A DNA stretch of 64,000 nt, from positions 43,129 to 107,128 of IMG/VR virus record IMGVR_UViG_3300044959_000303. One strand, 5' to 3'. A model generated the notes under the pieces. It saw only the letters and a list, made by a program, of their open reading frames with translations, made no database searches and was not told where the DNA came from. Source of the DNA: a virus. A program made the translations under genes and the position numbers. Of this stretch, positions 6,099 through 59,786 are shown one piece after another; the stretch's first letter is position 1, and the number at the start of each line of letters is the position of its first letter.

Positions 6099-8213
6099 AT
6101 GTCGGATCAGAATCTGGACAGAATCATAGATATTCTGGAAAAATTGAAAGAAATTCCTCGTATCAAGGAAGAACAGAAAAAATTGCTCGAAGATATAAAA
6201 AAATCTCTGGTTTCCGAAAGTCAGGACATTCATGAAAATTTCGAAAATGCAAATCGTTCCGTAGAGGAAACTCGAAAAAATCTGAACTCTTTGTTGAGAA
6301 TCAGTTTTTCTTTTGTAAACGTGATTCGAAATGTCATTCGAAAATTCACCAATCTCAAAGAAAGTTTGGATCAATTTTCGAGATCGGTAGCAAGATATTC
6401 GGAAAAAACACAAAGTTTGGTAGAAAGTCCGTTCGAAAATTTCAAATCATTTACGGAAAGTTTGCCGATCATAGGAGGATTTTCGATTGCATTTTTCAAA
6501 ATTTACGAAATGTTCGACGATCTTGCGAACGCTTATTCGAATGCGGCAAAAAGCGGTGTGATTTTTTCCAAAACCATTGAACAGATTTATGCCGATTCGA
6601 GAGATTTGGTAATGACTCTACCAGAATTTGCAAATTTTCTGGCGAAATATGCGAACATAGTCAATCGAGGTAACAGAGAATTCATCAATTATCTCGATAT
6701 TTCGATGAAAACATCGGACAGATTGTTGAGTTTTGGTTACGATCTGGAAACTCTGAGAGAAAGTGCAGCACAATTTCTGGTCATTCAGAGAAATCTTGGA
6801 TTTTTGAGAAGAATCAATGCCGAAGAACAATCGAAACTTTTTTCGACAACAATCGAAAATTTTTATTCTGCATCGAAACGACTTGGCATAGCGGCTACTG
6901 AAATTCTGCAAAGTCTGGAAAAACTTTCAGAAGATCCGGAAGCAAGAGTTGCTTTGCGAAAATTGGGACAGAGAGGACAGGAAATATTGGCGGTACTGGA
7001 AAAAGAAGCTCCCAATTTGCAAAAACTTCTGACTCAAGCCATAGTGAGAGGTGGTTTGGAAAGAGCGGATGATTATGCTCTTTTTGCCACTACAGAAATA
7101 TCCCCCATGATAGCTGAAATATATTCGATGATATTGTCCAATCGAGGATCCTTGAATTCACTTCTGGACCTGATAAGAAGCAATTCCGATGTTCTCAGTA
7201 GAAATATGCAATTGTTCGCATTGATGGGACAGGATCATATCGTGAACATTTTGAACGAACTCGATATTTTTTCGAAAAAGACTCTCGATACAATTGAATC
7301 TTCCGAAGAAAACATGGGCGAAGAATTTGCAAAACAGGTTGTTCTGGCAAGAAATCGTGTTCGGGCAACAATCGCAGATGTAAGTTCCGAAATCATAAGA
7401 AGACTTTCGGAAATAGGAAATGTTTCCGAACTGATTTCGAATTATCTCATAAAAATTACAAAAATTACGACAGATATGGCGAAAAGTACTTTGTGGCTGG
7501 ATTTGTTGGAAGGTTTTTCACAGGCTGCAACGAAACTCGTTTCTGCAATAGTGAATCTTTCAGATAAAATTGCCGGAATTTTCGGTTTGAACGGTACCAT
7601 ATATCAAGCCATAGTCGCGGGAATTCTTCTGTTTCTGCCAAAAGGACTGAACAGAATTTTTCAATCTCTTGGTGGTGCTTTTCTGGCAAATTATTCTTCT
7701 TCTTTCGGTTCTGCAATTTTGAGACCTATCATGAATTTAATGAATTATATTCTGTCGAGTACGAAAAGAACTTTTCTCGCTCTTGTCACTGGCATGTTTG
7801 CAGCATCGGGTTTGAGTAATCTTTTTGGCAATCTTTTTCCGGAAGAAAATTCGGAGCAAGCAACCGAAACGAAATCATTGTCACAAAACATTCCGTCAAC
7901 TTCGACGGAACCGACCACAATTCCGAATATCTCGAATCCGTCTGTAGCCGGTTCTCCTGTCACTGGTGCCGAAATTGCAAAAACTCCATTGATCACACCA
8001 TCTGTAACAAAAACTCTGGAATCCGAAAGCAGTGTAAATCCCGAGGCTTCTTTGGCAAAAAGCATGGAAGAGCTTTCGAACATAATGAAACAGATCAATT
8101 CGATGCACGAAAGAATCAAGGAAGCCAATGAAAGAAAGCTCCAGTTGTTGCAGAAAATGACAAAAACACAAGAATCTGTGAACGAAAGTATTTCCAATAT
8201 GATTTCACCGTAG
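6099..8213 (+). CDS. Tape-measure-like helical virion protein (paralog 1)
   Basis: Long helical protein with hydrophobic segments near the C-terminus; sits between the gp26-like gene and portal; similar to 8229..10622. Confidence 0.55.
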   Translation: MSDQNLDRIIDILEKLKEIPRIKEEQKKLLEDIKKSLVSESQDIHENFENANRSVEETRKNLNSLLRISFSFVNVIRNVIRKFTNLKESLDQFSRSVARYSEKTQSLVESPFENFKSFTESLPIIGGFSIAFFKIYEMFDDLANAYSNAAKSGVIFSKTIEQIYADSRDLVMTLPEFANFLAKYANIVNRGNREFINYLDISMKTSDRLLSFGYDLETLRESAAQFLVIQRNLGFLRRINAEEQSKLFSTTIENFYSASKRLGIAATEILQSLEKLSEDPEARVALRKLGQRGQEILAVLEKEAPNLQKLLTQAIVRGGLERADDYALFATTEISPMIAEIYSMILSNRGSLNSLLDLIRSNSDVLSRNMQLFALMGQDHIVNILNELDIFSKKTLDTIESSEENMGEEFAKQVVLARNRVRATIADVSSEIIRRLSEIGNVSELISNYLIKITKITTDMAKSTLWLDLLEGFSQAATKLVSAIVNLSDKIAGIFGLNGTIYQAIVAGILLFLPKGLNRIFQSLGGAFLANYSSSFGSAILRPIMNLMNYILSSTKRTFLALVTGMFAASGLSNLFGNLFPEENSEQATETKSLSQNIPSTSTEPTTIPNISNPSVAGSPVTGAEIAKTPLITPSVTKTLESESSVNPEASLAKSMEELSNIMKQINSMHERIKEANERKLQLLQKMTKTQESVNESISNMISP

Positions 8214-8228
8214 AAATGTGAGTGGAAA

Positions 8229-10622
8229 ATGTTAAATCTTTCTCAACTGGACAGAATCAAAAAAGAATTGGAAAAATATCCAGAACTCGAAAAAGAATTT
8301 CTGGATATTCTCAAGGACTTGAGAAATTCGATTTCGAAAGATCGAAAAAATATGAGAAAAATTTCCGAAAACATGGAATTGTTCCTGAGAAATCAAGGCG
8401 AATTTTCTTCCGATATGAAAAAAACCATTGAAGATATAACATATCACATTCACAATGCTTTCATTTTTTCTCTGGATTATGCCGGTATGATAAACACCTA
8501 CGAAAAATTGAGAAAAAACATTCTGCAACTTTCCGAAAGTATCAATGAAAATTACAAATTGTTCAGAAACATCACGAAAGGTTTCGTTGGTGTAATTTCG
8601 AGAAATTCGAAATATTTCGCGGCTTTCATTGGTGCTGTCGATGGCATGGCAAAAGTCTATTCGAGATTTTTTCAGATCGGTTTCAGTTTTTCGAAATCTG
8701 TCGAAGATTTTGTTCTGTTGAGTTCCCGTTTGAGCATGACATTTTCTGAAATTATCGATGTTTTGCAGGAAAATTTCACGGTTACCAAAGGAATTGGCAT
8801 AAACGAACTGGCAAATTTCATTACGAATATTCGAAAATCACAAGACAATCTTGCAGTTTATGGTATCAATGCCGAAACTCTTTCCAGATTTGTCATAAGA
8901 TATTTTCAAACATTGGAATTGTTGAATACCGAAAACATGAAAATTACAGATGTCAGTGAAAAAAGAATTGTCGAACTTGTTCGACAAATGTCGAAATTCA
9001 GTACAATGACAAACGTCGATATGGAAGATTTGTTGTATTCCATTCGAAAAAGAATCGAAGATCCATTTGTGAGAATCGCCTATCGCATGATTCCGGAAGA
9101 ATCGGCGAGAAATCTCGATTTTCTGAGTACGAGATTTCCAGAGGTTGCAAATGCGATCATGGAATCTCTCTATCGAGGAAATCTGGCTTTTTCTCAGGAA
9201 TTCGATTTGTTGTTGAGAGCAAATCTTCTCGAAGTTGTACAGCAAGCGACAAATCAGGTCAGGGAAGGAACCTTCGAATCGACGAAATTCATTCGAATAT
9301 TGAGTTCGAAAGTGAATGAAATCGAAAATATCTCCGAAGATTTGATAAAAAGAGGAGAAATCGATCTGGGCAAAAGATTGTCGGATCTGGCGCTTCGTTT
9401 GAGAACCGTAAATTCGACAGTAGGAAATGTCACACAAACCACGAAAGGTGTCATTCCCGAAATGATCAAGATCATGGATTCTACGAAAGCTGAAATTATC
9501 GGAAATGCAGCCGAAACTTTCAAAAGCATGTTGGAACTTGTACAAAAAGAAGATTTGAATCGAAAAGCCGCGAACATTATCGAAAATTTCAATGAAATGA
9601 CAAAAATCGTGACGAATTTTTCTCCTTCGGTAATCGAAAATGCTGCAAAAACTTCTTTTTTCATTGTAAGCGAAGCGGCTGAAACAATATATTCGATAAT
9701 AAAGAAAATCGATGTTATCGATGCTCTGATTTCATCCGGTGTTGTTGCGGGGTCGATTTTTGCTATCAGAAAATTTGGAATTTCGAGTTTTCTCGAAATT
9801 GGTGCAACTTTGTTGCGTAATATCGAAAACATTGCCATCAAATTCATGAGCAGCATAAAAGTTCCACAGAGACTTATCGAATCTTCGGTAATGAACAATC
9901 TGTTTTCCGTTTTGAAAAGTACTTTTTCCATAATACAAACAATGACAAGATACGCAATTTCATCTTCATTGCTTTTATCGAAATATGTAATACCTTCGTT
10001 TATCGGAAAATCTGCAAGAATTGCAGGTGCGGGAATTCAATCCACGGCAAAAGCAGCAAAAGCAGCAGGAAGCACGGCTTTTTCAGCATCCAAAAGATTT
10101 CTGACAAAAACTCTTGGTGCACCTTTGGCAATTTTTCTCGAATCCATAGGAGCATCGGTAGAAATTTACGACTTGTACAATCGTTATCAGAATGGAGAAA
10201 TTTCAGAAGAAGAACTCAAAAAAAGAATTTCGATTGTCATAGGATCTTCCATTGGTGGAATTGGTGGTGCAACGGCAGGAGCAACAGCCGGTTCTCTCGT
10301 GTTTCCGGGAATTGGAACATTGGCAGGTGCCGGCATGGGATATTTTGCCGGAAGCTCGATTGGAGAAATAATTTCGGAAAAAATATATGAAAGTATTGCA
10401 ACAGAAAGCATAAAGGAAGAAATTTCGAAACAGGCTTTACCTTCGAATGAAATGTCGGATCATGTTCAGAGTATTCTGAAAGAAGCAGAGCAGATGAAAA
10501 AAATCGTTTCTTCTGAACTGGAAAACATGCAAAAGGAATTGAGTCAGACCGAAAGACTTCTGCTCGAAAAATTGAAAACCATAAATTCTTCGGAAACTGC
10601 AAGATCCTTGATGCCGGATTGA
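8229..10622 (+). CDS. Tape-measure-like helical virion protein (paralog 2) with C-terminal glycine zipper
   Basis: GSSIGGIGGATAGATAGSLVFPGIGTLAGAGMG glycine zipper; N-terminal similarity to paralog 1. Confidence 0.6.
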   Translation: MLNLSQLDRIKKELEKYPELEKEFLDILKDLRNSISKDRKNMRKISENMELFLRNQGEFSSDMKKTIEDITYHIHNAFIFSLDYAGMINTYEKLRKNILQLSESINENYKLFRNITKGFVGVISRNSKYFAAFIGAVDGMAKVYSRFFQIGFSFSKSVEDFVLLSSRLSMTFSEIIDVLQENFTVTKGIGINELANFITNIRKSQDNLAVYGINAETLSRFVIRYFQTLELLNTENMKITDVSEKRIVELVRQMSKFSTMTNVDMEDLLYSIRKRIEDPFVRIAYRMIPEESARNLDFLSTRFPEVANAIMESLYRGNLAFSQEFDLLLRANLLEVVQQATNQVREGTFESTKFIRILSSKVNEIENISEDLIKRGEIDLGKRLSDLALRLRTVNSTVGNVTQTTKGVIPEMIKIMDSTKAEIIGNAAETFKSMLELVQKEDLNRKAANIIENFNEMTKIVTNFSPSVIENAAKTSFFIVSEAAETIYSIIKKIDVIDALISSGVVAGSIFAIRKFGISSFLEIGATLLRNIENIAIKFMSSIKVPQRLIESSVMNNLFSVLKSTFSIIQTMTRYAISSSLLLSKYVIPSFIGKSARIAGAGIQSTAKAAKAAGSTAFSASKRFLTKTLGAPLAIFLESIGASVEIYDLYNRYQNGEISEEELKKRISIVIGSSIGGIGGATAGATAGSLVFPGIGTLAGAGMGYFAGSSIGEIISEKIYESIATESIKEEISKQALPSNEMSDHVQSILKEAEQMKKIVSSELENMQKELSQTERLLLEKLKTINSSETARSLMPD

Positions 10623-10723: not shown

Positions 10724-12415
10724 ATGGTAAAATACAGAAAAAAAATTCAAGGAAATTACATTCAACAGGCAAAAAATTTTTCACGGACAAATTTTTTGAA
10801 TGCAAGCAATGATCTTGGTTTCAAATGGCAGAGTTATCTGCCTCTCATATATGCCGGACAACCTAAAAGAAGAGAAAGATACAATCAATACGATATAATG
10901 GATGCCGATCCGGAAATCAATGCTTCTCTCGATATCATTGCCGAATTCTGTACACAAACAGATCAACCGAACAATTTGCCATTTCGTATAAACACTTTCG
11001 AGTCCATGTCGGACACCGAAATGGAAATTATCAGAAGAAATTTGATAAAATGGACCAGAATCAACGAATTCGAAAGAAGATTGTTCAATATTTTTCGAAA
11101 TACCATAAAATATGGCGACCAGATATTCATAAAACATCCGAAAACCAAAAAATGGTTATGGATAGATCCGGCAAGAGTAGCATCGATAATTGTCAATTCG
11201 GCAAAAGGAAAAAAGCCCGAGTTTTATGTTGTCGAAGGGCTCGATGTAAATCTCGAAACTCTTGTAGCAACAACTCCTCCGCCTGCATATCAGCAGACGA
11301 CCGGCCTGGTGGCAAGATCTCCCGGTCCGGTAACTTACTCTTATCCCAGAATGGATTCGACATTGGGAAGATATACTGCACAAGCTACGCAACCAGCATT
11401 TATTGCAGCAGAAAACATCGTTCATATTTCATTGTCGGATGGCATGGACAACAATTGGCCTTTTGGCAATTCCATTCTCGAATCAGTGTACAAAGTTTTC
11501 AAACAGAAGGAACTTCTGGAAGACTCGATAATAATATATCGTGTACAAAGAGCACCGGAAAGAAGAGTTTTCTATATCGATGTCGGTGATATGTCACCGG
11601 CAATGGCAAATCAATATATCAATCGAATCAAAAATCAGATACATCAGAGAAGAATTCCTACCTTCAATGGTGGTGGTGAAAGTGTAATGTCAACGGCTTA
11701 CAATCCATTGTCGATACTCGAAGATTACTTTTTCGCACAAAGTGCAGACGGTAGAGGATCCAAGGTCGAAGTTCTTCCGGGCGGAGATCAACTTGGACAA
11801 ATCGACGATCTGATCTATTTCGACAGAAAATTGAGAAGAGGATTGAGAATTCCAAACGCCTATCTTCCCGGATCGACAGAAGAAGGCGGATCTTATAGTG
11901 ATGGCAAAGTCGGAACAGCATTCATACAGGAATTTCGTTTCAACAAATACTGTATGAGATTACAACAGGCAATAATTCAAAAATTCGATGAGGAATTCAA
12001 AAACTATATGAAAAGTTCCGGTGTAGAATTGAATTTCGATTCTTTTGAAATTCAATTTCACGAACCACAGAATTTCTCTCGTTATCGTCAAATTGAAATC
12101 GATAGTGCACAAGCTTCCGTGTTTACGTCACTTGCAGATATTCCGTATTTGAGCAAGAGATTTCTTATGAAAAGATTTCTGAATCTTTCCGATGAAGAAA
12201 TTTTCGAAAACGAGAGACTTTGGGAAGAAGAAAATGAAATCAAGGATGAAGATGATATCGACGATTTGAATGTGAATTTGCCGGACGTAGGTATACATTC
12301 GACAGATATGAATTATTCTGACAATCTGGAAACAGAAGAACCGGAAGAAGACGTAGAAGAAGTTCCCGAAGAAGAAAAAGTCGAAGAAGAAATAAAAAGT
12401 TCTTTTGAAAAATGA
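10724..12415 (+). CDS. gp20: Portal protein
   Basis: LEDSIIIYRVQRAPERRVFYIDVG, LEDYFFA, GSKVEVLPGG motifs. Confidence 0.96.
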   Translation: MVKYRKKIQGNYIQQAKNFSRTNFLNASNDLGFKWQSYLPLIYAGQPKRRERYNQYDIMDADPEINASLDIIAEFCTQTDQPNNLPFRINTFESMSDTEMEIIRRNLIKWTRINEFERRLFNIFRNTIKYGDQIFIKHPKTKKWLWIDPARVASIIVNSAKGKKPEFYVVEGLDVNLETLVATTPPPAYQQTTGLVARSPGPVTYSYPRMDSTLGRYTAQATQPAFIAAENIVHISLSDGMDNNWPFGNSILESVYKVFKQKELLEDSIIIYRVQRAPERRVFYIDVGDMSPAMANQYINRIKNQIHQRRIPTFNGGGESVMSTAYNPLSILEDYFFAQSADGRGSKVEVLPGGDQLGQIDDLIYFDRKLRRGLRIPNAYLPGSTEEGGSYSDGKVGTAFIQEFRFNKYCMRLQQAIIQKFDEEFKNYMKSSGVELNFDSFEIQFHEPQNFSRYRQIEIDSAQASVFTSLADIPYLSKRFLMKRFLNLSDEEIFENERLWEEENEIKDEDDIDDLNVNLPDVGIHSTDMNYSDNLETEEPEEDVEEVPEEEKVEEEIKSSFEK

Positions 12416-21915: not shown

Positions 21916-22020
21916 TTATTTCGAAAAAAATATACTTTTGAAGAAAAATCGAAAAATGAAATTTATTCATAAATATTCGTGTCGACAAATATTTATCGAA
22001 ATCGTATCGAGGATTTTTTC

Positions 22021-23201: not shown

Positions 23202-24581
23202 ATGTCGGACAACAGATTCGATCTTTCGTATTTCTACGACGGTCAGATAAGAAGAATGAACATTCAGTTCACTCGAATTTTTACAAATTTTCATTATTCG
23301 ATTGGAAAAAATCGAAACGGCGAGCCTTTGTTGAGAAGAGTTCCAGCGAGATATGCTTCGACAAATCGGCAGGTTGCTTATGTTCTGAGAAACAATTCGG
23401 AAAACGTGATGTTGTCCGTACCAATGTTCACCGTATATCTGACAGGTCTGACATATGACAGAAATCGAGTGCAGGATCCTCTCTTTTCGGAAAAAATTCG
23501 CTTCAACGAAAAAAAATTCGATTCGATTTCCGGTGAGTTCATTCAAGAACCGGGACAAAGATTCACTGTCGAAAGATACATGCCAGTTCCTTACACGATG
23601 AGATGGAACGTGGATTTGTGGGTGAGCAACGAAAGCCAGAAAGAACAGTTGGTGGAACAGATAATAGTTCTTTTCAATCCTTCCATACAATTGCAATTCA
23701 CCGAAAATCCTCTGGATTGGACAAGCCTGACAGAATTGACTCTGGAAGAAATCAACTGGAGTAACAATTCGATTCCGATAGGAACGGGTGGTGAAATAGA
23801 AATCATAACCTTTACGTTTTCCGCTCCGGTATGGATAAATCCGCCAGCAATAGTCGAAAGACAGAAAATAATAAAAACAATCATTACAAATGTTCTGGAA
23901 GCAGAAAAATACGAAGATTACGAAACAGAAGCAAGTTACGGTGTACAGTTCGACAAAATCGATCTGTTGAGCAGAACGGTGACAACTTTCAATGATCATA
24001 CAATCGTGATAAATCAGAATGTCGTAAAATTGACAGGTCCGGGAGGAATCGAAGTCAATGAGAATGGCAAACCGTTTTCTTGGAAAACAATCTTTTCGAA
24101 ATGCGGAGGTTTTCGTCCCGGAATTACACAACTTGTGATCAATCCGACCGACAATATCGAAGACGAAGAACATTTGATTTCTGGTATACTCGATTATGGT
24201 TCGAGTGAAAATGAACTTTTGTGGTTTCCAAATCCATCTACACTTCCATTGAATACCATTCGGGAAATAAATGCCATCATAGATCCTGTGAAAACTTTTC
24301 CCGAAAGAGGTCTTTCGATTCCAGTGATCGGAACCAGATATCTTTTATTGTCAGATATAGGAAATTCCATTGCCTGGGGAAACATTCAGGCAAAAAAACA
24401 TGAAATAATAGAATGGGACGGATCGAAATGGGTTGTCGCATTCAATGTAGAACTGGAGAAAGAAAAAATTCATTATGTCAAGAATCTCTATGACAACAAT
24501 CAATTGATATGGAATGGAAAGGAATGGAAATATCTTGTGAATGGATTGTATGAACAAGGTTTCTGGAGAATTATTCTGTAA
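23202..24581 (+). CDS. gp15: Tail sheath stabiliser / tail terminator gp15-like
   Basis: YFYDGQIRR, MPVPY, EQIIVLFNPS, WINPPA. Confidence 0.8.
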   Translation: MSDNRFDLSYFYDGQIRRMNIQFTRIFTNFHYSIGKNRNGEPLLRRVPARYASTNRQVAYVLRNNSENVMLSVPMFTVYLTGLTYDRNRVQDPLFSEKIRFNEKKFDSISGEFIQEPGQRFTVERYMPVPYTMRWNVDLWVSNESQKEQLVEQIIVLFNPSIQLQFTENPLDWTSLTELTLEEINWSNNSIPIGTGGEIEIITFTFSAPVWINPPAIVERQKIIKTIITNVLEAEKYEDYETEASYGVQFDKIDLLSRTVTTFNDHTIVINQNVVKLTGPGGIEVNENGKPFSWKTIFSKCGGFRPGITQLVINPTDNIEDEEHLISGILDYGSSENELLWFPNPSTLPLNTIREINAIIDPVKTFPERGLSIPVIGTRYLLLSDIGNSIAWGNIQAKKHEIIEWDGSKWVVAFNVELEKEKIHYVKNLYDNNQLIWNGKEWKYLVNGLYEQGFWRIIL

Positions 24582-24615
24582 AAAAGAAAAAAGCTGCCCG
24601 ATACCGGGCAGCTTT
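24581..24615 (-). terminator. Terminator (probably bidirectional) between gp15 and the hfa-like cassette
   Basis: AAAGCTGCCCG-ATAC-CGGGCAGCTTT flanked by A/T runs. Confidence 0.85.
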
Positions 24616-24655
24616 GAAAAAAGTTGCAATTTTTTCGATCTGTTTTACGATCTTG

Positions 24656-25249
24656 TCATGGTCGCACAACAGTGTTGTTCAGATTGATGTTGTTGCCAAC
24701 GGCAGTAGCATTGACTTCGATGTTGCCACGAACGACGTTGTTACGAACTTCGGCAACGGCAGTGACATTGCTTCCGACAACAGCCTGACCAAGATTTCCA
24801 AGACGATTGTTGGTTCCATTCAGATTGACATTGTTACCGACAGATGTTGCTTCCACAGTAAGTGGACCATTGAGATTGCTGTTGGTAACCAAAGAAAATG
24901 ACTGAACGTTGCTGAACAACACCGCCTGATTTACCGCATCGTTATTCAGAACTCTGACATTTTCACCAGCAAGATTGTTTCCAACAGCAGTCGAACGAAC
25001 TTCCGGGTCGGAAGTATTCGAAACATTGGCAATGACAGCTGTTGCGGTTACATTGCTGTTTTTGACCAACTGACCATTGATATCGACATTCACATTCACT
25101 TCGATGTTGTCGATCTCGTTCAAATAACGACAATCGATACTGGTGCCCGGGTGTGTCAGATCACAACTCGTGGCATGTCCAGTACTTGCAAAAGTCAGAA
25201 GACCAATTGCAGTTGCGATGGAAGCAAGATAACGAATACTGACAGTCAT
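24656..25249 (-). CDS. Secreted Asn/Val-rich beta-repeat protein, HfaD/HfaA (curlin-like) type
   Basis: Signal peptide ending TGHA; three repeats ending STAVGNN, ATSVGNN, ATAVGNN; strong RBS AGGAGG. Confidence 0.65.
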   Translation of the reverse strand: MTVSIRYLASIATAIGLLTFASTGHATSCDLTHPGTSIDCRYLNEIDNIEVNVNVDINGQLVKNSNVTATAVIANVSNTSDPEVRSTAVGNNLAGENVRVLNNDAVNQAVLFSNVQSFSLVTNSNLNGPLTVEATSVGNNVNLNGTNNRLGNLGQAVVGSNVTAVAEVRNNVVRGNIEVNATAVGNNINLNNTVVRP

Positions 25250-25398
25250 GTTTTCCTCCTTTGGTTGTCAGTTCTGATTCATATTGGTAAATTGCATCAA
25301 TTTACCAATACTTCCGGAGAATCCGGCATGACTTCCCGATAACCAGAAATCGGTAGGCCCAGTTTTTGAATTGGATTGGCAGCCAATATTCGAAAAAC
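25250..25398 (-). promoter_or_regulatory. Structured intergenic leader with several hairpins
   Basis: 13-bp perfect inverted repeat at 25282-25310 plus CCGGA/TCCGG, CCGAT/ATCGG and ATTGG/CCAAT stems. Confidence 0.5.
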
Positions 25399-26286
25399 TC
25401 ATTGCATACCAAAAATTCGTACGCGATCACTTTCAATGTTTCTGTCCACATACCTTTTGTATCCTCCCGGATACAATTCGGTATTTTCGTATCTGTTCAG
25501 ATAAATGATATCATTGTTGTTGCAATTCAACTCTATTCCATAGATATCGGCCAGCAACAACGCCACCGAAGTTTCTATCACATCTCTCACACCAACATTC
25601 AGAGGTTCCTGAACCTTGAAACCACTGTTCACATCGATGAGTACATTTCCGAAAAAGGAGAAAATACCACTTTTCACCTCTTTTCCGGTAATTCTTTTTT
25701 TCAGGGAAATTGCCTTTACGATTTCAGTGGTTCGAGTGTTGACAACTCTGAAATCTGCTGCAATTTCCATTATATATTCTCTTGTTCCACCACCGATTCC
25801 GTTGATATAGAATTCAGAGCCACCAGAAATCAGATAATTGATTTCTGTAATACCACCTGCAATATAATAATCCGAACCCAGAACCTGTCCGGGAAAAATT
25901 TTTCTATATCCCGGTTCGTCATCACCAAGAACCTTGTTGTTCGAGAGATTGAGTTCGACATCGAATACGGAACGATCGATTCTTTCCACAACTCGAACAA
26001 CATTTGTTTTTGCCAAAGCAGTCGTAACCATATGTGAAATACCGGAAGAAACCTTTTTTCCATCTACCAGAGAAATTTTACCGCTGTAATCATCTACATT
26101 TCCGACGGAAATTGTAATCACACCTTTGTTGTTTTTCAAGGAATTCAGTGCTTTCGACTCGAAACATTTCAGATAATTCTGATATTCCGTGACGTTTTGT
26201 TCTACCGGATATCTGTTCAAGGTAGTAACAGAACATCCAGACAGTAAACTTGCCAGAAAAATCGCAGAAAAAAGTTTCTTTTTCAT
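25399..26286 (-). CDS. hfaB: HfaB/CsgG-family outer membrane secretion lipoprotein
   Basis: Lipobox LLSGC; VTEYQNYLKC, ISVGNVDDYSGK, VVER, GSDYYIAGGITEINY, DFRVVNTRT, QEPLNVGVRDVIE. Confidence 0.88.
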   Translation of the reverse strand: MKKKLFSAIFLASLLSGCSVTTLNRYPVEQNVTEYQNYLKCFESKALNSLKNNKGVITISVGNVDDYSGKISLVDGKKVSSGISHMVTTALAKTNVVRVVERIDRSVFDVELNLSNNKVLGDDEPGYRKIFPGQVLGSDYYIAGGITEINYLISGGSEFYINGIGGGTREYIMEIAADFRVVNTRTTEIVKAISLKKRITGKEVKSGIFSFFGNVLIDVNSGFKVQEPLNVGVRDVIETSVALLLADIYGIELNCNNNDIIYLNRYENTELYPGGYKRYVDRNIESDRVRIFGMQ

Positions 26287-26299
26287 GATATGATTTCCG

Positions 26300-26665
26300 T
26301 CAATAATTGATGCTTCCGTTCAATTCTGTTTCAATATTACTGTCTTCTATTTCTTGTGTCAAGTTGAAATTTGGATTGTTCGAAATCGTTCCGTTTCTAT
26401 TGTGAAGAGAAATATTACTGTTTGTTATGTTTCCCACAGTACCGCCGTAAATTGAAATTCCACCATGAGGAATATTGCTACCATTCGAATTTTTTTCGAA
26501 CATGTTTCCTTTTTTCATTTCAATTGCCGTGGCTTGATTGACAAGATCTTCGAGTTTTCTTTCCCGAAAATTCCAAATGTCATTCTGTCCAAATTCTGCA
26601 TGTGCAGAATAGTTGAAAATAATGATCGAAAAACCTGAAAACAATGTAATCAGATGTTTTCTCAT
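26300..26665 (-). CDS. Small secreted Asn/Gly-rich protein, HfaA-like by position and composition
   Basis: Signal peptide ending SAHA; GTVGNITN and N/S-rich C-terminus; directly upstream of hfaB-like gene; GGAGG 10 nt before ATG 26665. Confidence 0.55.
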   Translation of the reverse strand: MRKHLITLFSGFSIIIFNYSAHAEFGQNDIWNFRERKLEDLVNQATAIEMKKGNMFEKNSNGSNIPHGGISIYGGTVGNITNSNISLHNRNGTISNNPNFNLTQEIEDSNIETELNGSINY

Positions 26666-26688
26666 GATTTTCATTCCTCCATTGTTTT

Positions 26689-27324
26689 TTATCTTGGTCC
26701 TACACTGCTCATATCTGGTCCGATACTGTCAGTATTTGCTCCGATACTGCCATTGTCCGGTCCAATTCCATCATTCACACCATCTTTACCGTTTTTTCCA
26801 TCCTTACCATTTTCATTGTCTTTTCCATTGTTGTCATTTCTGGAATTGTTGGAATTGTCATTATACTCGTCAGTGAAACAAAGAGTTATCTTTTTTTCTT
26901 CATCTTTTTCACAGATCTGTTGATTCATGACAATTTCTTTTTCTTTTCTTCGAATTTCGATAAACACGAATTCTTTTTCAGAACTTTTTTTGGCAATTTC
27001 GATTCTTTTTCCACTTTTGTCAAAAGAAGATATATTTTCAGAAAAATAAGTGTTTTCCAATTTCTGTCTTTCCCTTTCTTTGTTCAAAATATGACTTTTG
27101 ATGAAATTCAAGGAATAGCATTCCTGATTTGGTTCGGGTTCATCATATTCTTTCGGCCAAAGATAACATTCATCTTTCGAATTTTCGATTTTGTGTTCTG
27201 TTTCCGAAAACATGAAAATTTTTTGATTGTCTAAAAATCTTTTGGATTCGAAATTGACATGATATACATAAGAGCAAGAAGTCGAAAGAAAAGAAGCAAG
27301 AACGACAAAAGAAAATTTTTTCAT
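26689..27324 (-). CDS. Putative lipoprotein with Asn/Asp/Gly-rich tail
   Basis: MKKFSFVVLASFLSTSC lipobox-like N-terminus; C-x8-C-FTDEYND motif shared with 27576..28226. Confidence 0.6.
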   Translation of the reverse strand: MKKFSFVVLASFLSTSCSYVYHVNFESKRFLDNQKIFMFSETEHKIENSKDECYLWPKEYDEPEPNQECYSLNFIKSHILNKERERQKLENTYFSENISSFDKSGKRIEIAKKSSEKEFVFIEIRRKEKEIVMNQQICEKDEEKKITLCFTDEYNDNSNNSRNDNNGKDNENGKDGKNGKDGVNDGIGPDNGSIGANTDSIGPDMSSVGPR

Positions 27325-27363
27325 AAATTGTCTCCATTTTTTCGAAATTTCAAGTCAAATGAT

Positions 27364-27391
27364 ATTTTACATACGAAATCGAAATTGTCAA
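27364..27391 (-). promoter_or_regulatory. Sigma70-type promoter for the hfa-like operon
   Basis: TTGACA-16 nt-TAAAAT on the minus strand. Confidence 0.65.
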
Positions 27392-27451
27392 TTTTTATTT
27401 TAATTTTTATTTACCAAAAAAGTTCATATCGATCATATGTAAACCGAAATT

Positions 27452-27490
27452 AAAAAAAAAATAATCCGGTTGAACAGGTTCAACCGGATT
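27452..27490 (-). terminator. Intrinsic terminator after the repeat protein gene
   Basis: AATCCGGTTGAAC/GTTCAACCGGATT stem then a long U run on the minus strand. Confidence 0.8.
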
Positions 27491-27575
27491 GAATTTGTTC
27501 AAGTTACTTTTTCAATTTTTATCTTGTTCTTGTCATTTTTACTTTATCCAGATTTTGGTTTACATTACCAGAAAC

Positions 27576-28226
27576 TTAGCCATCCGAATCACCGACATCC
27601 GAATCACCGGCATCCGAATCACCGACATCCGAATCACCGACATCCGAATCACCGACATCCGAATCACCGACATCCGAATCACCGACATCCGAATCACCGG
27701 CACCCGGTTCATCAGCAACCGGTTCATCAGCAACCGGTTCATCAGCAACCGGTTCATCAGCACCCGGTTTATCAGCAACCGGTTCATCAGCACCCGGTTC
27801 ATCAGCAACCGGTTCATCAGCACCCGGTTTATCAGCAACCGGTTCATCAGCACCCGGTTCATCAGCAACCGGTTCATCAGCACCCGGTTCATCAGCAACC
27901 GGTTCATCAGCACCCGGTTCATCAGCACCCGGTTCATCAGCAACCGGTTCATCAGCACCCGGTTCATCAGCAACCGGTTCATCAGCACCCGGTTCATCAG
28001 CAACCGGATCGATTGGATCATCCACTCTCATGAAGTAGTTAGGTTGTTCACTATCATTATATTCATCGACATAACAAATGGATTTTCCTCTGTCACTTTC
28101 ATCATCGCAAACAAAAGTTTCCCGAACGCTGGAAACTCTTCTGTTTTCTGCGTTGACATCAGATGAATAAGAAAACACAGTCAAAAGAAGACCACTGACA
28201 ATAAACATTGGTACTTTTTTCATCAC
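27576..28226 (-). CDS. Secreted acidic repeat protein (P[VG]AD[EK] x20, GDSD[VAG] x8)
   Basis: Signal peptide; C-x9-C-YVDEYND motif; pentapeptide repeats; downstream terminator. Confidence 0.75.
27581..28007. repeat. Two abutting 15-bp tandem arrays (coding)
   Basis: CATCCGAATCACCGA-type x8 then CA[AC]CCGGTT[CT]ATCAG-type x about 20. Confidence 0.95.
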
Positions 28227-28274
28227 CTTGCCCCTTTCCTTTGGTCTTGTTCGAATTCATTGCTGAATTCGAGA

Positions 28275-29312
28275 TCATATTAAATCCAAAAAACAGACTT
28301 TGTCAACAAAATTTTTCGACCTTTTTTTCGAATTTCTTCGTATATCTTCGTTTACCATCATTCGAACAAGTTCGTCGAAAGAAACTTTTGGCGACCAACC
28401 AAGTTTTTCTTTGGCTTTCTTCGGATTGCCTCTCAGATATGGTACTTCCGCGGGACGCATATGAAGAGGATTGATTTTGACATAGGAAACATAATCTTCC
28501 CGGCGTTTTGTCAAACCGGAAAACAAAAAGGCTTTTTCCAGAAATTCACGTAAACTGTGAGACTCTCCGGTCGCAATAACGTAATCTTCCGGTGTCGATT
28601 GCTGTAACATCAACCACATTGCTTCGACAAAATCCCCCGCATATCCCCAATCTCGATAAACATCGAGATTTCCAAGTTCGATGAATTTCTGTTCTCCAGA
28701 AATTATTCTTGCAATTCCGTTTGTGATTTTTCTCGTGACAAATTCTTTTCCTCGAAGTGGAGATTCATGATTCATGAGTATTCCGGAACAGGCGAAAATA
28801 CCATAAGATTCCCTGTAGTTCACCGTTATCCAATGAGCTGCCAGCTTCGAAACTCCATATGGCGAACGGGGATGAAAAGGAGTATTTTCGTCTTGAGTCT
28901 TGTTACTGTTCAGAGAAATACCGAACATTTCCGATGTGGATGCCTGATAGAATCTGCTTTTCGGACTATTGGAAATTATCGCTTCCAGAATGTTCAATGC
29001 TCCCATGAAATTCGTTTCCAAAGTATACTTTGGATTTTCCCACGATATTCCGACAAAGGATTGTGCAGCCAGATTGTAAACTTCATTTGGTTTGATCTGT
29101 TTCATGATTTTCATGATGGAAATTTCGTCGGTAACATCACCAACAAGATATTCGATTTCGTTTGTTATACCGAAATAATCCAGATTTTCGAAATTCGGGT
29201 TACTTTTTCTTCTTACCAGACCGTAAATTCTGTAATCTTTTTCCAGAAGAAATTTCGAAAGATAAGCGCCATCCTGACCAAGAATTCCGGTAATGAAAGC
29301 TGTTCTTTTCAC
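28275..29312 (-). CDS. gmd: GDP-mannose 4,6-dehydratase
   Basis: ITGILGQDGAYL, YNLAAQSFV, YQASTSEMFG, PRSPYGVSK, NHESPLRG, RDWG. Confidence 0.96.
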   Translation of the reverse strand: MKRTAFITGILGQDGAYLSKFLLEKDYRIYGLVRRKSNPNFENLDYFGITNEIEYLVGDVTDEISIMKIMKQIKPNEVYNLAAQSFVGISWENPKYTLETNFMGALNILEAIISNSPKSRFYQASTSEMFGISLNSNKTQDENTPFHPRSPYGVSKLAAHWITVNYRESYGIFACSGILMNHESPLRGKEFVTRKITNGIARIISGEQKFIELGNLDVYRDWGYAGDFVEAMWLMLQQSTPEDYVIATGESHSLREFLEKAFLFSGLTKRREDYVSYVKINPLHMRPAEVPYLRGNPKKAKEKLGWSPKVSFDELVRMMVNEDIRRNSKKRSKNFVDKVCFLDLI

Positions 29313-29339
29313 TTTTTTTCCCCCGAGATACCGAAAAAC

Positions 29340-29368
29340 ATTATAGTGAACGAAAATTGAAAATTCAA
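29340..29368 (-). promoter_or_regulatory. Sigma70-type promoter for gmd
   Basis: TTGAAT-17 nt-TATAAT on the minus strand. Confidence 0.7.
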
Positions 29369-29780: not shown

Positions 29781-29844
29781 CTGTAATTTTCTTTTCTGAA
29801 ATCGAAATTATTTATGATACGAAGAAAATTTTTCTGTCCGTTCG

Positions 29845-33472: not shown

Positions 33473-33614
33473 TTTTCATAATTCCTCGTTCTGTTTCGAT
33501 ATTATTTATGGTAAACGAACAAGTTCGAACGTTTTGAATATTTATGATTCTATTTATTTCATACGTATTTTCAAGATTCGAATTTTTCGGAAATTTTTCG
33601 AAATCGCAAAAGAA

Positions 33615-42087: not shown

Positions 42088-42163
<76 letters not shown>

Positions 42164-43112: not shown

Positions 43113-43448
43113 ATGAAGGAGAAAGTAATTATGGAAAACACATCGTCACTCAGCATCAAGGATCTGGTAGATCTGTTGAATCTTGTCGAATATGCGGAGA
43201 AAAACGGAGCCTATTCGGAATTTACCTTTATCAGTGAAAAGGTTACCGAATTGAAAAAAAAGGTTGTAAATTTCGTAAACAGTGCATCGGCTAATGCAGC
43301 TTCGGCAAACAATACGAACAGACAGGAAAATACGAGTTCGGTAAATACCACCAATACAACAAATACAACAAATATGGCAAATACAACCAATATTGAAAAA
43401 GTTCAGGAAAACGAAACGGGCAGGGAACGAAAAAACAGAAGAAAATAG
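43113..43448 (+). CDS. Hypothetical protein with NTT repeat tail
   Basis: LSIKDL...NGAY N-terminal domain; AAGGAG suggests a start at 43131. Confidence 0.65.
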   Translation: MKEKVIMENTSSLSIKDLVDLLNLVEYAEKNGAYSEFTFISEKVTELKKKVVNFVNSASANAASANNTNRQENTSSVNTTNTTNTTNMANTTNIEKVQENETGRERKNRRK

Positions 43449-50950: not shown

Positions 50951-52786
50951 ATGTTTCGATATTCCGGAACTCTGAAATTTCGAAACAGAAAATACGAAAT
51001 TGTCAGTTTCGATTCGAACGAATCGAACAATATTCTGAATTTTCTCGAACTTCGAAAAAATCTGCAGATTCCGATTTTCGATGCGTTGAAAAATCTTCGA
51101 CCGGATCTGTTGAAAGTTTCTTTCGGGGAAAAAAAATATCTTCTGTCGATAATTCCCTCGTCGGGTGTCTGTTGTGATATTCATGTTTTTCTTTCTCTGG
51201 AAGAATACGAATCTGGTTTTTCGACGAATTTCACAAATGAAAACAGTATTCTGAAACAGATTCTGGATCTGAACGACTACGGCATCGTGATCATACGAAA
51301 TCAGAAAGTGATTTTCATCAACAGAACAATGGAAAAAATCGGTGGTTACAGTCTGGAAGAAGTTGTCGGAAAAAATTTCATCGATTTTTTCGATGAAAAG
51401 GAAAAAAGAAAAATTCTCGAAATACACCGCAAAAGAGCATCCATGGAGAACGAAGAACCGGAAAGAACATGGAAATCGGTTCTGGTGAAGAAAAATGGCG
51501 AAAAAATGTATGTCGAATGTAATGTTGCAAGAACGATTTTCGACAATGAAGATGCAGTGATCGCAATCGTGAAAGACATGACTCATTATCGAAAATTGTT
51601 GAATGTGCATCATGAAAGATATTATTACGACGACATGACGAAGACGATGAACCGGAACAGGCTCGTTGCCGATTTTCCGAAAATTCACAGAAAATATGTC
51701 GGCATATGTGATCTGATTCGTTTCAAGTTCGTCAACGACAAATTCGGTTACATGTACGGAGACAATCTCATAAGAAAATTCGCAAATTTTCTGAAAGAAC
51801 AGAAAATTGTCGAAAAAGTCTATCGATTGGGAGGAGACGAATTTTTTCTCGTTTTTTCGAAGAACGACATTTGCGAAATTCGAAAATTTTTCGAGTTTGC
51901 AAACGAAATTTCGAAAGAAATTCGTTTTCGTCTGGTGATTGCAGAAAAAAGAAAAAGTTTTCGAACCACGATGGAAATTCTGGATTTCTGTCTGACGGAA
52001 TCGAAAGAAAAATTCGTGAATTTCGTTTTTTTCGACAAGGAAAAAGAGACGATCTTCCGAAATCGTAAAAAACTGTTTTCTGCGAAAAACGAAGAAATTC
52101 TCGATGACATTCACATTTTCTTCCAGAAGATTTTCGACAGGAATTCCAATTCGAAAGGTTTCGAAATTCTTTCCGGTTTTCGAAGTTTCTTCCTGAACAA
52201 GGAAGATGTGTTCCGGGAAATATACAAAAACGGACTGTCGATCGAATTCATGAATCGAATTCTGGAAAAGATTTCGTTGTTCGTTTCCGGAAAAAATTTG
52301 CAGAACGAAAGAATTCACATCAATATCGACCATTCTCTTCTGGGAAATCAGTTCGAAGATTTTTTTCTCCTGTTGAAAAATTACGAAAGAATTCTGAATT
52401 CGAGTCGATTGATTCTGGAAATTACGGAAGAATACAATATTCTGACAGAAAAGGAATATGTTTCCAATCTTCTGAAGCTTCGTGAAAATTCCTTTCGTCT
52501 CGCTCTGGATGACATGGGCAGAAAATACAGTTCACTCGAATATGTTCTGAATATTCCTTTCGACATGATCAAATTCGATCGAAAATTTTCCTTCGAACTG
52601 GAAAAAGAAAATTCGAAAGTCGAAAATCTCTTTTCGAAACTGGTATCGGTTCTGAAAGACGATCATATTCTCGTACTCGAAGGAATCGAAAATGAAAAGT
52701 CGTATGAAAAAGCACTGAAATACGATATCGACGAATTGCAGGGTTTCTTTCTACACAGACCGGAAAATTGCGATTTTTCCCGATAG
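50951..52786 (+). CDS. PAS-GGDEF-EAL c-di-GMP metabolising protein
   Basis: PAS (FINRTMEKIGGYSLEEVVGKNF); GGDEF (FKFVNDKFGYMYGD, RLGGDEF); EAL (GFEIL, LEITE, LDDMG..YSSL, IKFDR, EGIE, LQGF). Confidence 0.9.
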   Translation: MFRYSGTLKFRNRKYEIVSFDSNESNNILNFLELRKNLQIPIFDALKNLRPDLLKVSFGEKKYLLSIIPSSGVCCDIHVFLSLEEYESGFSTNFTNENSILKQILDLNDYGIVIIRNQKVIFINRTMEKIGGYSLEEVVGKNFIDFFDEKEKRKILEIHRKRASMENEEPERTWKSVLVKKNGEKMYVECNVARTIFDNEDAVIAIVKDMTHYRKLLNVHHERYYYDDMTKTMNRNRLVADFPKIHRKYVGICDLIRFKFVNDKFGYMYGDNLIRKFANFLKEQKIVEKVYRLGGDEFFLVFSKNDICEIRKFFEFANEISKEIRFRLVIAEKRKSFRTTMEILDFCLTESKEKFVNFVFFDKEKETIFRNRKKLFSAKNEEILDDIHIFFQKIFDRNSNSKGFEILSGFRSFFLNKEDVFREIYKNGLSIEFMNRILEKISLFVSGKNLQNERIHINIDHSLLGNQFEDFFLLLKNYERILNSSRLILEITEEYNILTEKEYVSNLLKLRENSFRLALDDMGRKYSSLEYVLNIPFDMIKFDRKFSFELEKENSKVENLFSKLVSVLKDDHILVLEGIENEKSYEKALKYDIDELQGFFLHRPENCDFSR

Positions 52787-59709: not shown

Positions 59710-59786
59710 TGGCGACCCCGAGTGGGCTCGAACCACCAACCCCCGGCTTAGAAGGCCGGTGCTCTATCCGGTTGAGCTACGGGGTC
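59710..59786 (-). tRNA. tRNA-Arg(TCT)
   Basis: GACCCCGTAGCTCAACCGGATAGAGCACCGGCCT-TCT-AAGCCGGGGGTTGGTGGTTCGAGCCCACTCGGGGTCGCCA; full cloverleaf with CCA. Confidence 0.96.

Follow-up and report, generated by a model that had tools for sequence, protein, structure and literature searches.

In Caulobacter, the holdfast-anchor proteins HfaA, HfaD and HfaE are described as surface multimers resistant to sodium dodecyl sulfate whose outer-membrane or surface targeting needs HfaB (PMC6707917; bioRxiv 10.1101/2022.07.20.500906), and in the latter report sugar-nucleotide mutations alter the binding of the holdfast to the envelope. In phages, CsgG-CsgF clusters without an identified fibre subunit were reported from pelagimyophages and from phage Melnitz, and 'sibling capture', uptake or lysis timing were proposed as their roles (PMC7029224, PMC9004378). 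Here, a 64,000-nucleotide (nt) stretch of viral DNA, positions 43,129 to 107,128 of IMG/VR record IMGVR_UViG_3300044959_000303 (the window, whose numbering is used throughout), was analysed around a cassette of minus-strand genes. An original prediction, made from the letters alone, had proposed that this cassette encodes an hfaA-hfaB-hfaD-like secretion system and had stated that CsgG-like genes on their own were already noticed in some large T4-like phages. On balance, we lean towards reading a four-gene unit of the cassette (24656-27324) as a phage-borne type VIII-like secretion module that makes amyloid-like structures at the surface and so alters the surface of the infected cell. As predicted, three of its genes follow the order hfaA-hfaB-hfaD on the minus strand, with products of 124, 295 and 197 amino acids (aa) and gaps of 13 and 149 nt.

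The 295-aa protein is, by its sequence, clearly a CsgG-family lipoprotein closest to HfaB. The HfaB model NF037935 was its best match in NCBIfam at 206.7 bits, below the HfaB equivalog cut-off of 300 bits, against 48.9 bits for the curli CsgG model; true Caulobacteraceae HfaB proteins scored 371-411 bits on NF037935. CsgG (PF03783) was matched at 68.2 bits (cut-off 20.8) over profile positions 3-201 of 210 and phrog_20175 at 152 bits; an alignment with the E. coli CsgG of solved structure covered residues 44-247 (E 6e-11), and the assignment as an HfaB/CsgG lipoprotein was thereby upheld. Its lipobox, read from the sequence by eye, is MKKKLFSAIFLASLLSGC, the corresponding site in a relative, P0002, being ILTGC. 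This relative (66% identity) was the single close one among 5.8 billion clustered proteins, and a diverged relative retains both the channel (66%) and the cargo (62%), probably on one contig, as both are listed with a longest contig of 52,823 bp; the nearest relatives are P0002 and P0004 on this 52.8-kb contig and P0006 on a 128-kb contig. No close relatives of channel and cargo were found in scans of IMG/VR and JGI metagenomes. A quick tree placed the phage channels and Caulobacteraceae HfaB on one side of a split (Shimodaira-Hasegawa-like approximate likelihood-ratio test 99), with long branches and an unsupported phage clade.

The presumed cargo, the 197-aa protein, begins with a signal peptide and contains two cysteines; its three repeats of 47-48 aa, which can be aligned, end in T(A/S)VGNN. 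The motifs lie at residues 87 (TAVGNN), 135 (TSVGNN) and 182 (TAVGNN), where an Asn/Val-rich protein with three (S/A)T(A/S)VGNN-type repeats had been foreseen, and the period of (S/T)A(V/I)GN is 47-48 residues, compared with 47-49 in HfaD. Four close relatives and 18 representatives at E 0.001 or better were found among 1.84 billion proteins, those inspected being secreted and carrying ATAVGNN-type repeats. A profile of this family picked out the immediate downstream neighbour of the HfaB-like gene in three further phage lineages: a 229-kb IMG/VR phage (121.8 bits), CcrColossus (107.4 bits) and Brevundimonas phage Kabachok (86.5 bits). It also matched 23 of 61 sampled Caulobacteraceae genomes, and an HfaB-type gene adjoined the matched gene in all 12 of the Caulobacteraceae loci fetched. 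Nine of the matched proteins, 409-464 aa long and encoded directly after HfaB, scored 41-91 bits, and the four of these nine that were scanned with NF037936 were all canonical HfaD (187-342 bits); the other three loci have short (213-234 aa) HfaD-like genes, and in the two checked with NCBIfam a true hfaB lies just downstream, accompanied in one by hfaA. On this sequence evidence, the 197-aa protein is a short, three-repeat member of the HfaD family, and the proposed HfaD-like identity was sustained in this short form by the reciprocal profile evidence, the HfaB adjacency and the repeat period. In some Caulobacteraceae, an HfaD-like gene of about 200-234 aa lies just upstream of hfaA-hfaB, besides or replacing the long downstream hfaD (loci L067-L069; L019, L032, L034); by its motifs, this short gene is distinct from HfaE.

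An AlphaFold2 model of the 197-aa protein was all-beta over residues 60-197 (predicted template modelling score 0.63), with roughly three strands per repeat. Among solved structures it most resembled FapC (Foldseek E 1.4e-4; Z 5.0) and then the CsgA fibril (Z 4.0), with beta-helix proteins ranking next. The modelled fold is consistent with a stacked-beta repeat, and of the anticipated resemblance to an HfaD/CsgA-type fold the all-beta architecture and the FapC/CsgA ranking stood, whereas the scores are too low for a fold to be assigned. No match was returned by a BFVD fold search with the 197-aa protein at E 0.001 or better, by a PDB sequence search with the family profile, or by a single-sequence tblastn search against phages.

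The open reading frame (ORF) in the HfaA position comprises 124 codons. Translation most likely starts at the fourth of these, giving the 121 aa originally stated, because a GGAGGA ribosome-binding site is correctly spaced there. After the signal peptide, the protein carries G-Q-N-D-I-W-N-F and KKGNMF, in register with the family encoded upstream of HfaB genes, whose members have a signal peptide, G-E-N-x-x-W-Q-F, KKGGYYD and then an Asn/Gly/Ser-rich tail, and its GN-rich segment lines up with SA(I/V)GNN in true HfaA. A bacteria-only profile of the HfaA position gave a marginal 7.5 bits (one of 1000 shuffles scored as high), rising to 15.1 bits with phage sequences added, and alignment of the protein to the wider family with hhalign gave a probability of 36% and E 3.9e-4, above all 100 of 100 shuffles that kept the signal peptide. 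By the HfaA-position profile, the protein ranked second among 521 ORFs of the window; the top match, ORF 43113-43448, lacks a signal peptide and offers no more than an Asn/Thr-rich tail, and was rejected as compositional. A word search with the 124-aa protein returned only itself. From position and motif, the label HfaA-like is likely.

Export signals, read by eye, begin five of the six cassette products, in line with the signal or lipoprotein peptides expected on five genes: the lipoboxes are LLSGC in the 295-aa protein and a relaxed LSTSC in the 211-aa protein, and the signal peptides of the remaining three exported products end in SAHA, TGHA and DVNA. The cassette is divided into two units, the first comprising gmd and an acidic repeat gene and the second the 211-, 124-, 295- and 197-aa genes. 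A well-placed sigma-70-like promoter and a strong terminator were found for each unit, as had been claimed. The motif ATAAATA is enriched in the window (23 sites against 8.5 expected, a count reached by 0 of 100 shuffles) and lies about 30 nt upstream of the tail-sheath gene and of a 132-aa gene; probably it forms the core of the phage's late promoters, which would fit the T4 type. None of its sites falls within the cassette (24582-29368), so that the predicted absence of late promoters from these genes held.

Channel formation, export, polymerisation, timing and benefit to the phage we infer as follows. Most likely, the repeat proteins encoded by the phage operon leave through a channel that the operon itself supplies and then polymerise at the surface of the infected cell. 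Host RNA polymerase would transcribe the four-gene unit from its sigma-70-type promoter, Sec would carry all four products across the inner membrane, and the HfaB-type lipoprotein would form a CsgG-like outer-membrane channel. Through this channel the HfaD-family protein, and probably also the small protein in the HfaA position, would be exported and would assemble, on the infected cell, into amyloid-like polymers of stacked-beta type. An altered surface would be the likely outcome: cells might become stickier or aggregate, surface polysaccharide might be tethered, or receptors might be covered.

The trio of small-protein, HfaB-like and HfaD-family genes was also found in CcrColossus (gp241-243), in Brevundimonas phage vB_BpoS-Kabachok (01660-01640) and its relatives, and in the 229-kb IMG/VR phage UViG_3300023313_000001; for CcrPW, the presence of the HfaB-like gene was established, with the scope limited to that gene. 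The phage channel proteins are 37-45% identical to the 295-aa protein of the window, and public phage records label the trio genes 'CsgG-like', 'hfaB' or 'hypothetical'. A megablast search of the cassette region against phage records gave no match, and full-text literature searches found no paper discussing phage hfaA/B/D genes or the trio. The phage Hfa-type trio thus appears undescribed, yet it is not unique to the source phage: the expectation that the complete Hfa-like order would be new held for the literature, while the order itself recurs in CcrColossus, the Brevundimonas phages and the 229-kb phage. In bacteria, 56 HfaB-like loci (L007-L062) with 34-41% identity were collected, mainly from alpha-, beta- and gammaproteobacteria, and in 49 of the 54 with an identified channel gene an Asn-rich secreted protein of about 160-250 aa is encoded just upstream. 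The bacterial HfaB-like lipoproteins are about 440-490 aa long and are often flanked by a protein of about 1400-1600 aa as well; such loci extend well beyond Caulobacterales and are widespread in Comamonadaceae, Sphingomonadales, Rhizobiales and some gammaproteobacteria.

These neighbourhoods also bear on an improbable alternative, in which the HfaB-like channel is only a pore that renders the outer membrane permeable, serving lysis timing, depolarisation or uptake along the lines suggested for CsgG-CsgF of Melnitz, and the neighbouring secreted proteins are accessory or vestigial. Channels of pelagimyophages and Melnitz indeed stand without identifiable fibre subunits (PMC7029224, PMC9004378), and in the 229-kb phage the trio (7431-10026) is followed after about 1 kb by genes for a membrane protein and a lipoprotein that resemble a spanin pair (11113-11900), the HfaB-like protein of that phage being fused to a C-terminal, peptidoglycan-binding SPOR domain. 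However, four phage lineages, as well as the 62-66% identical relative, have kept the HfaD-family gene beside the channel gene, and the cassette does not adjoin lysis genes in the window. Furthermore, the 295-aa protein had no match to pelagimyophage CsgG at E 1e-5 or better, which points to separate acquisition of a different subfamily.

Several observations weigh against the secretion-module reading. The 197-aa protein scored only 13.3 bits (E 0.04) on the HfaD model NF037936, which has a cut-off of 100 bits and a length of about 400 aa, and an hhalign comparison of its family with four canonical HfaD sequences was not significant. Since the HfaB and HfaD matches both lie below the NCBI equivalog cut-offs, the phage proteins are to be taken as relatives of the anchor proteins and not as the anchor itself. 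The small protein did not match the HfaA model NF037934 (cut-off 50 bits) at E up to 1, and its match to the wider family is marginal, so that of the HfaA-like claim the position and the motifs in register stood and a match to the HfaA model did not; its AlphaFold2 model was disordered (predicted local distance difference test 57) and uninformative. The constriction of E. coli CsgG, Y-x-x-x-N-F, is not kept, YPASNF aligning with LVDGKKV in the 295-aa protein, and the gate of the phage channel would therefore differ from that of curli CsgG. The FapC and CsgA fold matches are weak, as given above. As a class, promoter-like sites are not enriched (15 against 13.3 in shuffles), and only their placement upstream of both units therefore counts. 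The search for minus-strand terminators returned none in the interval from the late 132-aa gene to gmd, and late transcripts of the sheath operon could run on into the cassette. Lastly, the 107 kb of the source contig yielded no partner sugar enzyme, no polysaccharide genes and no glycosyltransferase.

The missing terminator, together with the position of the cassette within the tail-gene region on the strand of the sheath operon, would suit late-expressed or virion-associated proteins, or else passenger host DNA without a role in infection. Both are quite remote from what the rest of the locus suggests, and this was judged the least probable of the explanations weighed. The export signals on all four products of the second unit put them outside the cytoplasm, where tailed virions are assembled, and thus argue against a role inside the virion. 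All six ORFs occupy, as predicted, the gap between a gp15-like and a tail-sheath gene, both flanks being confirmed by Pfam and PHROGs. In Agrobacterium phage Atu_ph07 and Sinorhizobium phage Phosso, unrelated metabolic genes (nicotinamide adenine dinucleotide synthesis or salvage, DprA) follow the gp15-like gene, in Atu_ph07 up to the tail sheath, and the gap was therefore regarded as a variable cargo slot rather than a tail module. Both phages encode an endolysin immediately upstream of the gp15-like gene. As for passenger DNA, the G+C content of the cassette genes (0.32-0.49) spans either side of the window mean of 0.37, and the diverged relative has kept channel and cargo genes. The features of the locus are collected in Table 1.

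Table 1. Features of the cassette and its surroundings in the window
Feature	Coordinates	Strand	Basis
gp15-like tail-sheath stabiliser	23202-24581	convergent with cassette	PF16724, 83.6 bits
Strong terminator ending unit 2, shared with the convergent gp15-like gene	24590..24615	-	11-bp stem, 7 G-C pairs
Short HfaD-family secreted repeat protein, presumed cargo, 197 aa	24656..25249	-	family profile, repeats, neighbours
HfaB-type (CsgG-family) outer-membrane lipoprotein, presumed secretion channel, 295 aa	25399..26286	-	NF037935, PF03783, phrog_20175
Small secreted Asn/Gly-rich protein, HfaA position, 124 aa	26300..26674	-	position, motifs
Orphan putative lipoprotein, 211 aa, Asn/Gly/Asp-rich tail, first gene of unit 2	26689..27324	-	LSTSC signal; GGAG ribosome-binding site
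Sigma-70-like promoter, unit 2, TTGACA-16-TAAAAT	27364..27391	-	11/12 positions; 40 nt upstream of 211-aa gene
Intrinsic terminator ending unit 1	27463..27490	-	12-bp stem, T9 tail
Secreted acidic repeat protein, 216 aa	27576..28226	-	signal peptide, about 20 ADEP(V/G)-type and about 8 GDSDV pentapeptide repeats
gmd, GDP-mannose 4,6-dehydratase, 345 aa, cytoplasmic	28275..29312	-	TIGR01472, 415.8 bits (above equivalog cut-off of 415); PF16363, 1.1e-123
Sigma-70-like promoter, unit 1, TTGAAT-17-TATAAT	29340..29368	-	consensus match only, 10/12 positions; 28 nt upstream of gmd start
Tail sheath, 1183 aa	29921-33472	same strand as cassette	PF17482; phrog_10581
ATAAATA, example sites	29809-29815; 33503-33557; 21969-21975	-; -; +	motif count, 23 sites in window

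The first unit was examined for its relation to the trio. Its gmd gene is of a kind common in phages (91 phage records), and of its proposed membership in the cassette the location beside the trio unit was borne out, whereas gmd belongs to a separate transcription unit and is no more than a candidate member. The 216-aa gene contains, at 27581-28007, two adjoining 15-nt tandem arrays of 20.5 and 7.9 copies (92-98% match), and its product, with 21% Asp, 11% Glu and 11% Pro, matched nothing in Pfam, PHROGs, NCBIfam or the ESM Atlas beyond compositional similarity. Arrays of this kind are prone to length change. The unit may act on the same surface as the trio, the two being linked by position only. 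The 211-aa protein that leads the second unit had no match in Pfam, PHROGs, NCBIfam, PADLOC or the ESM Atlas. HfaE was considered for the extra cassette proteins and rejected, the motifs PHPASQV, CNERSLLR and DGGVG being absent by eye.

With gmd at hand, the same export machinery could serve another purpose, namely a coat of repeat protein, combined with a gmd-enabled change in lipopolysaccharide, that hides or alters the phage receptors, confers resistance to superinfection and spares progeny from being lost on lysed debris. This explanation was rated unlikely, although it has points in its favour: the promoters are of the host-polymerase type and likely early, the gmd product is the precursor of 6-deoxyhexoses found in O-antigens (TIGR01472), surface-sugar genes of phages have been read as a means of avoiding coinfection (PMC7029224), and sugar-nucleotide mutations change the binding between holdfast and envelope (bioRxiv 10.1101/2022.07.20.500906). 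Set against these, gmd alone completes no pathway, a second sugar enzyme or glycosyltransferase being among the genes not found in the 107 kb, and a PADLOC search of the cassette returned nothing credible and matched no defence or exclusion family.

The window makes up the final 64 kb of a viral contig of 107 kb in IMG/VR, for which CheckV estimates about 28% completeness. The contig is a fragment of a jumbo myophage, and the gp15-like neighbour of the cassette is closest to those of the jumbo myophages Sinorhizobium Phosso, Agrobacterium Atu_ph07 and Pseudomonas PA5oct, at 36-37% identity. A 611-aa PAS-GGDEF-EAL protein (50951-52786, plus strand; Pfam scores of 92.8 bits for EAL, 39.9 for GGDEF and 42.5 for PAS) is a phage enzyme of cyclic di-guanosine monophosphate (c-di-GMP) metabolism, and its presence in the same window fits a manipulation of surface behaviour. 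Two transfer RNA genes were also located in the window, for Lys (CTT) at 42088-42163 and for Arg (TCT) at 59710-59786, both on the minus strand.

Phage CsgG channels have been puzzling since 2020 for want of an exported subunit identifiable beside them, and here an HfaB-type channel adjoins a recognisable HfaD-family protein. As the trio occurs in cultured phage-host pairs (CcrColossus with Caulobacter; the Brevundimonas jumbo phages), its role could be tested by ordinary genetics in a model organism. The analysis further defined the short three-repeat form of HfaD and showed HfaB-type trios to be widespread in alpha-, beta- and gammaproteobacteria outside Caulobacterales. A bolder proposal, which we hold to be doubtful, is that jumbo phages from several unrelated lineages possess complete, self-sufficient functional-amyloid export, with channel and fibre subunits, joined here by c-di-GMP and sugar-nucleotide enzymes, to produce a sticky, aggregating cell that captures nearby hosts for the progeny. 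Were this true, the cassette would provide the first extracellular fibre system of a phage whose subunits are identified.

Compared with the curli and Fap systems, the locus shares an outer-membrane channel and secreted proteins with imperfect repeats rich in Asn, Gly and Val, and FapC and CsgA were the best matches of the AlphaFold2 model. However, no CsgE, CsgF, curlin-repeat or Fap family was detected among the five secreted proteins with Pfam and NCBIfam, the phage repeat spans 47-48 residues, and the structural scores are low. With the CsgG-CsgF clusters of pelagimyophages (HTVC008M group) and Melnitz, it shares a phage-encoded channel of the CsgG family within a variable region; theirs, in contrast, is curli-type CsgG with CsgF and no recognisable fibre subunit, whereas here the channel is HfaB-type and accompanied by HfaD-family cargo. 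The trios of other jumbo phages have the same three-gene arrangement, the repeat family downstream (86-122 bits) and upstream small proteins that share a G-E-x-x-x-W-x-F start, but they belong to phiCbK-like siphophages of Caulobacterales, and neither gmd nor the genes for an acidic repeat protein or an extra lipoprotein adjoin them. Relative to the holdfast anchor, the phage cargo is shorter, at 197 aa and three repeats against about 410-460 aa in HfaD, all the phage proteins score below the curated cut-offs, with no clear HfaA match for the small protein, the operon is led by an extra lipoprotein gene, and no holdfast synthesis genes were seen. What the locus has in common with HfaA-HfaB-HfaD is the gene order, a channel whose best model is HfaB, and a cargo motif, (S/T)A(V/I)GN at a period of about 48 residues, that was found by reciprocal profile search.

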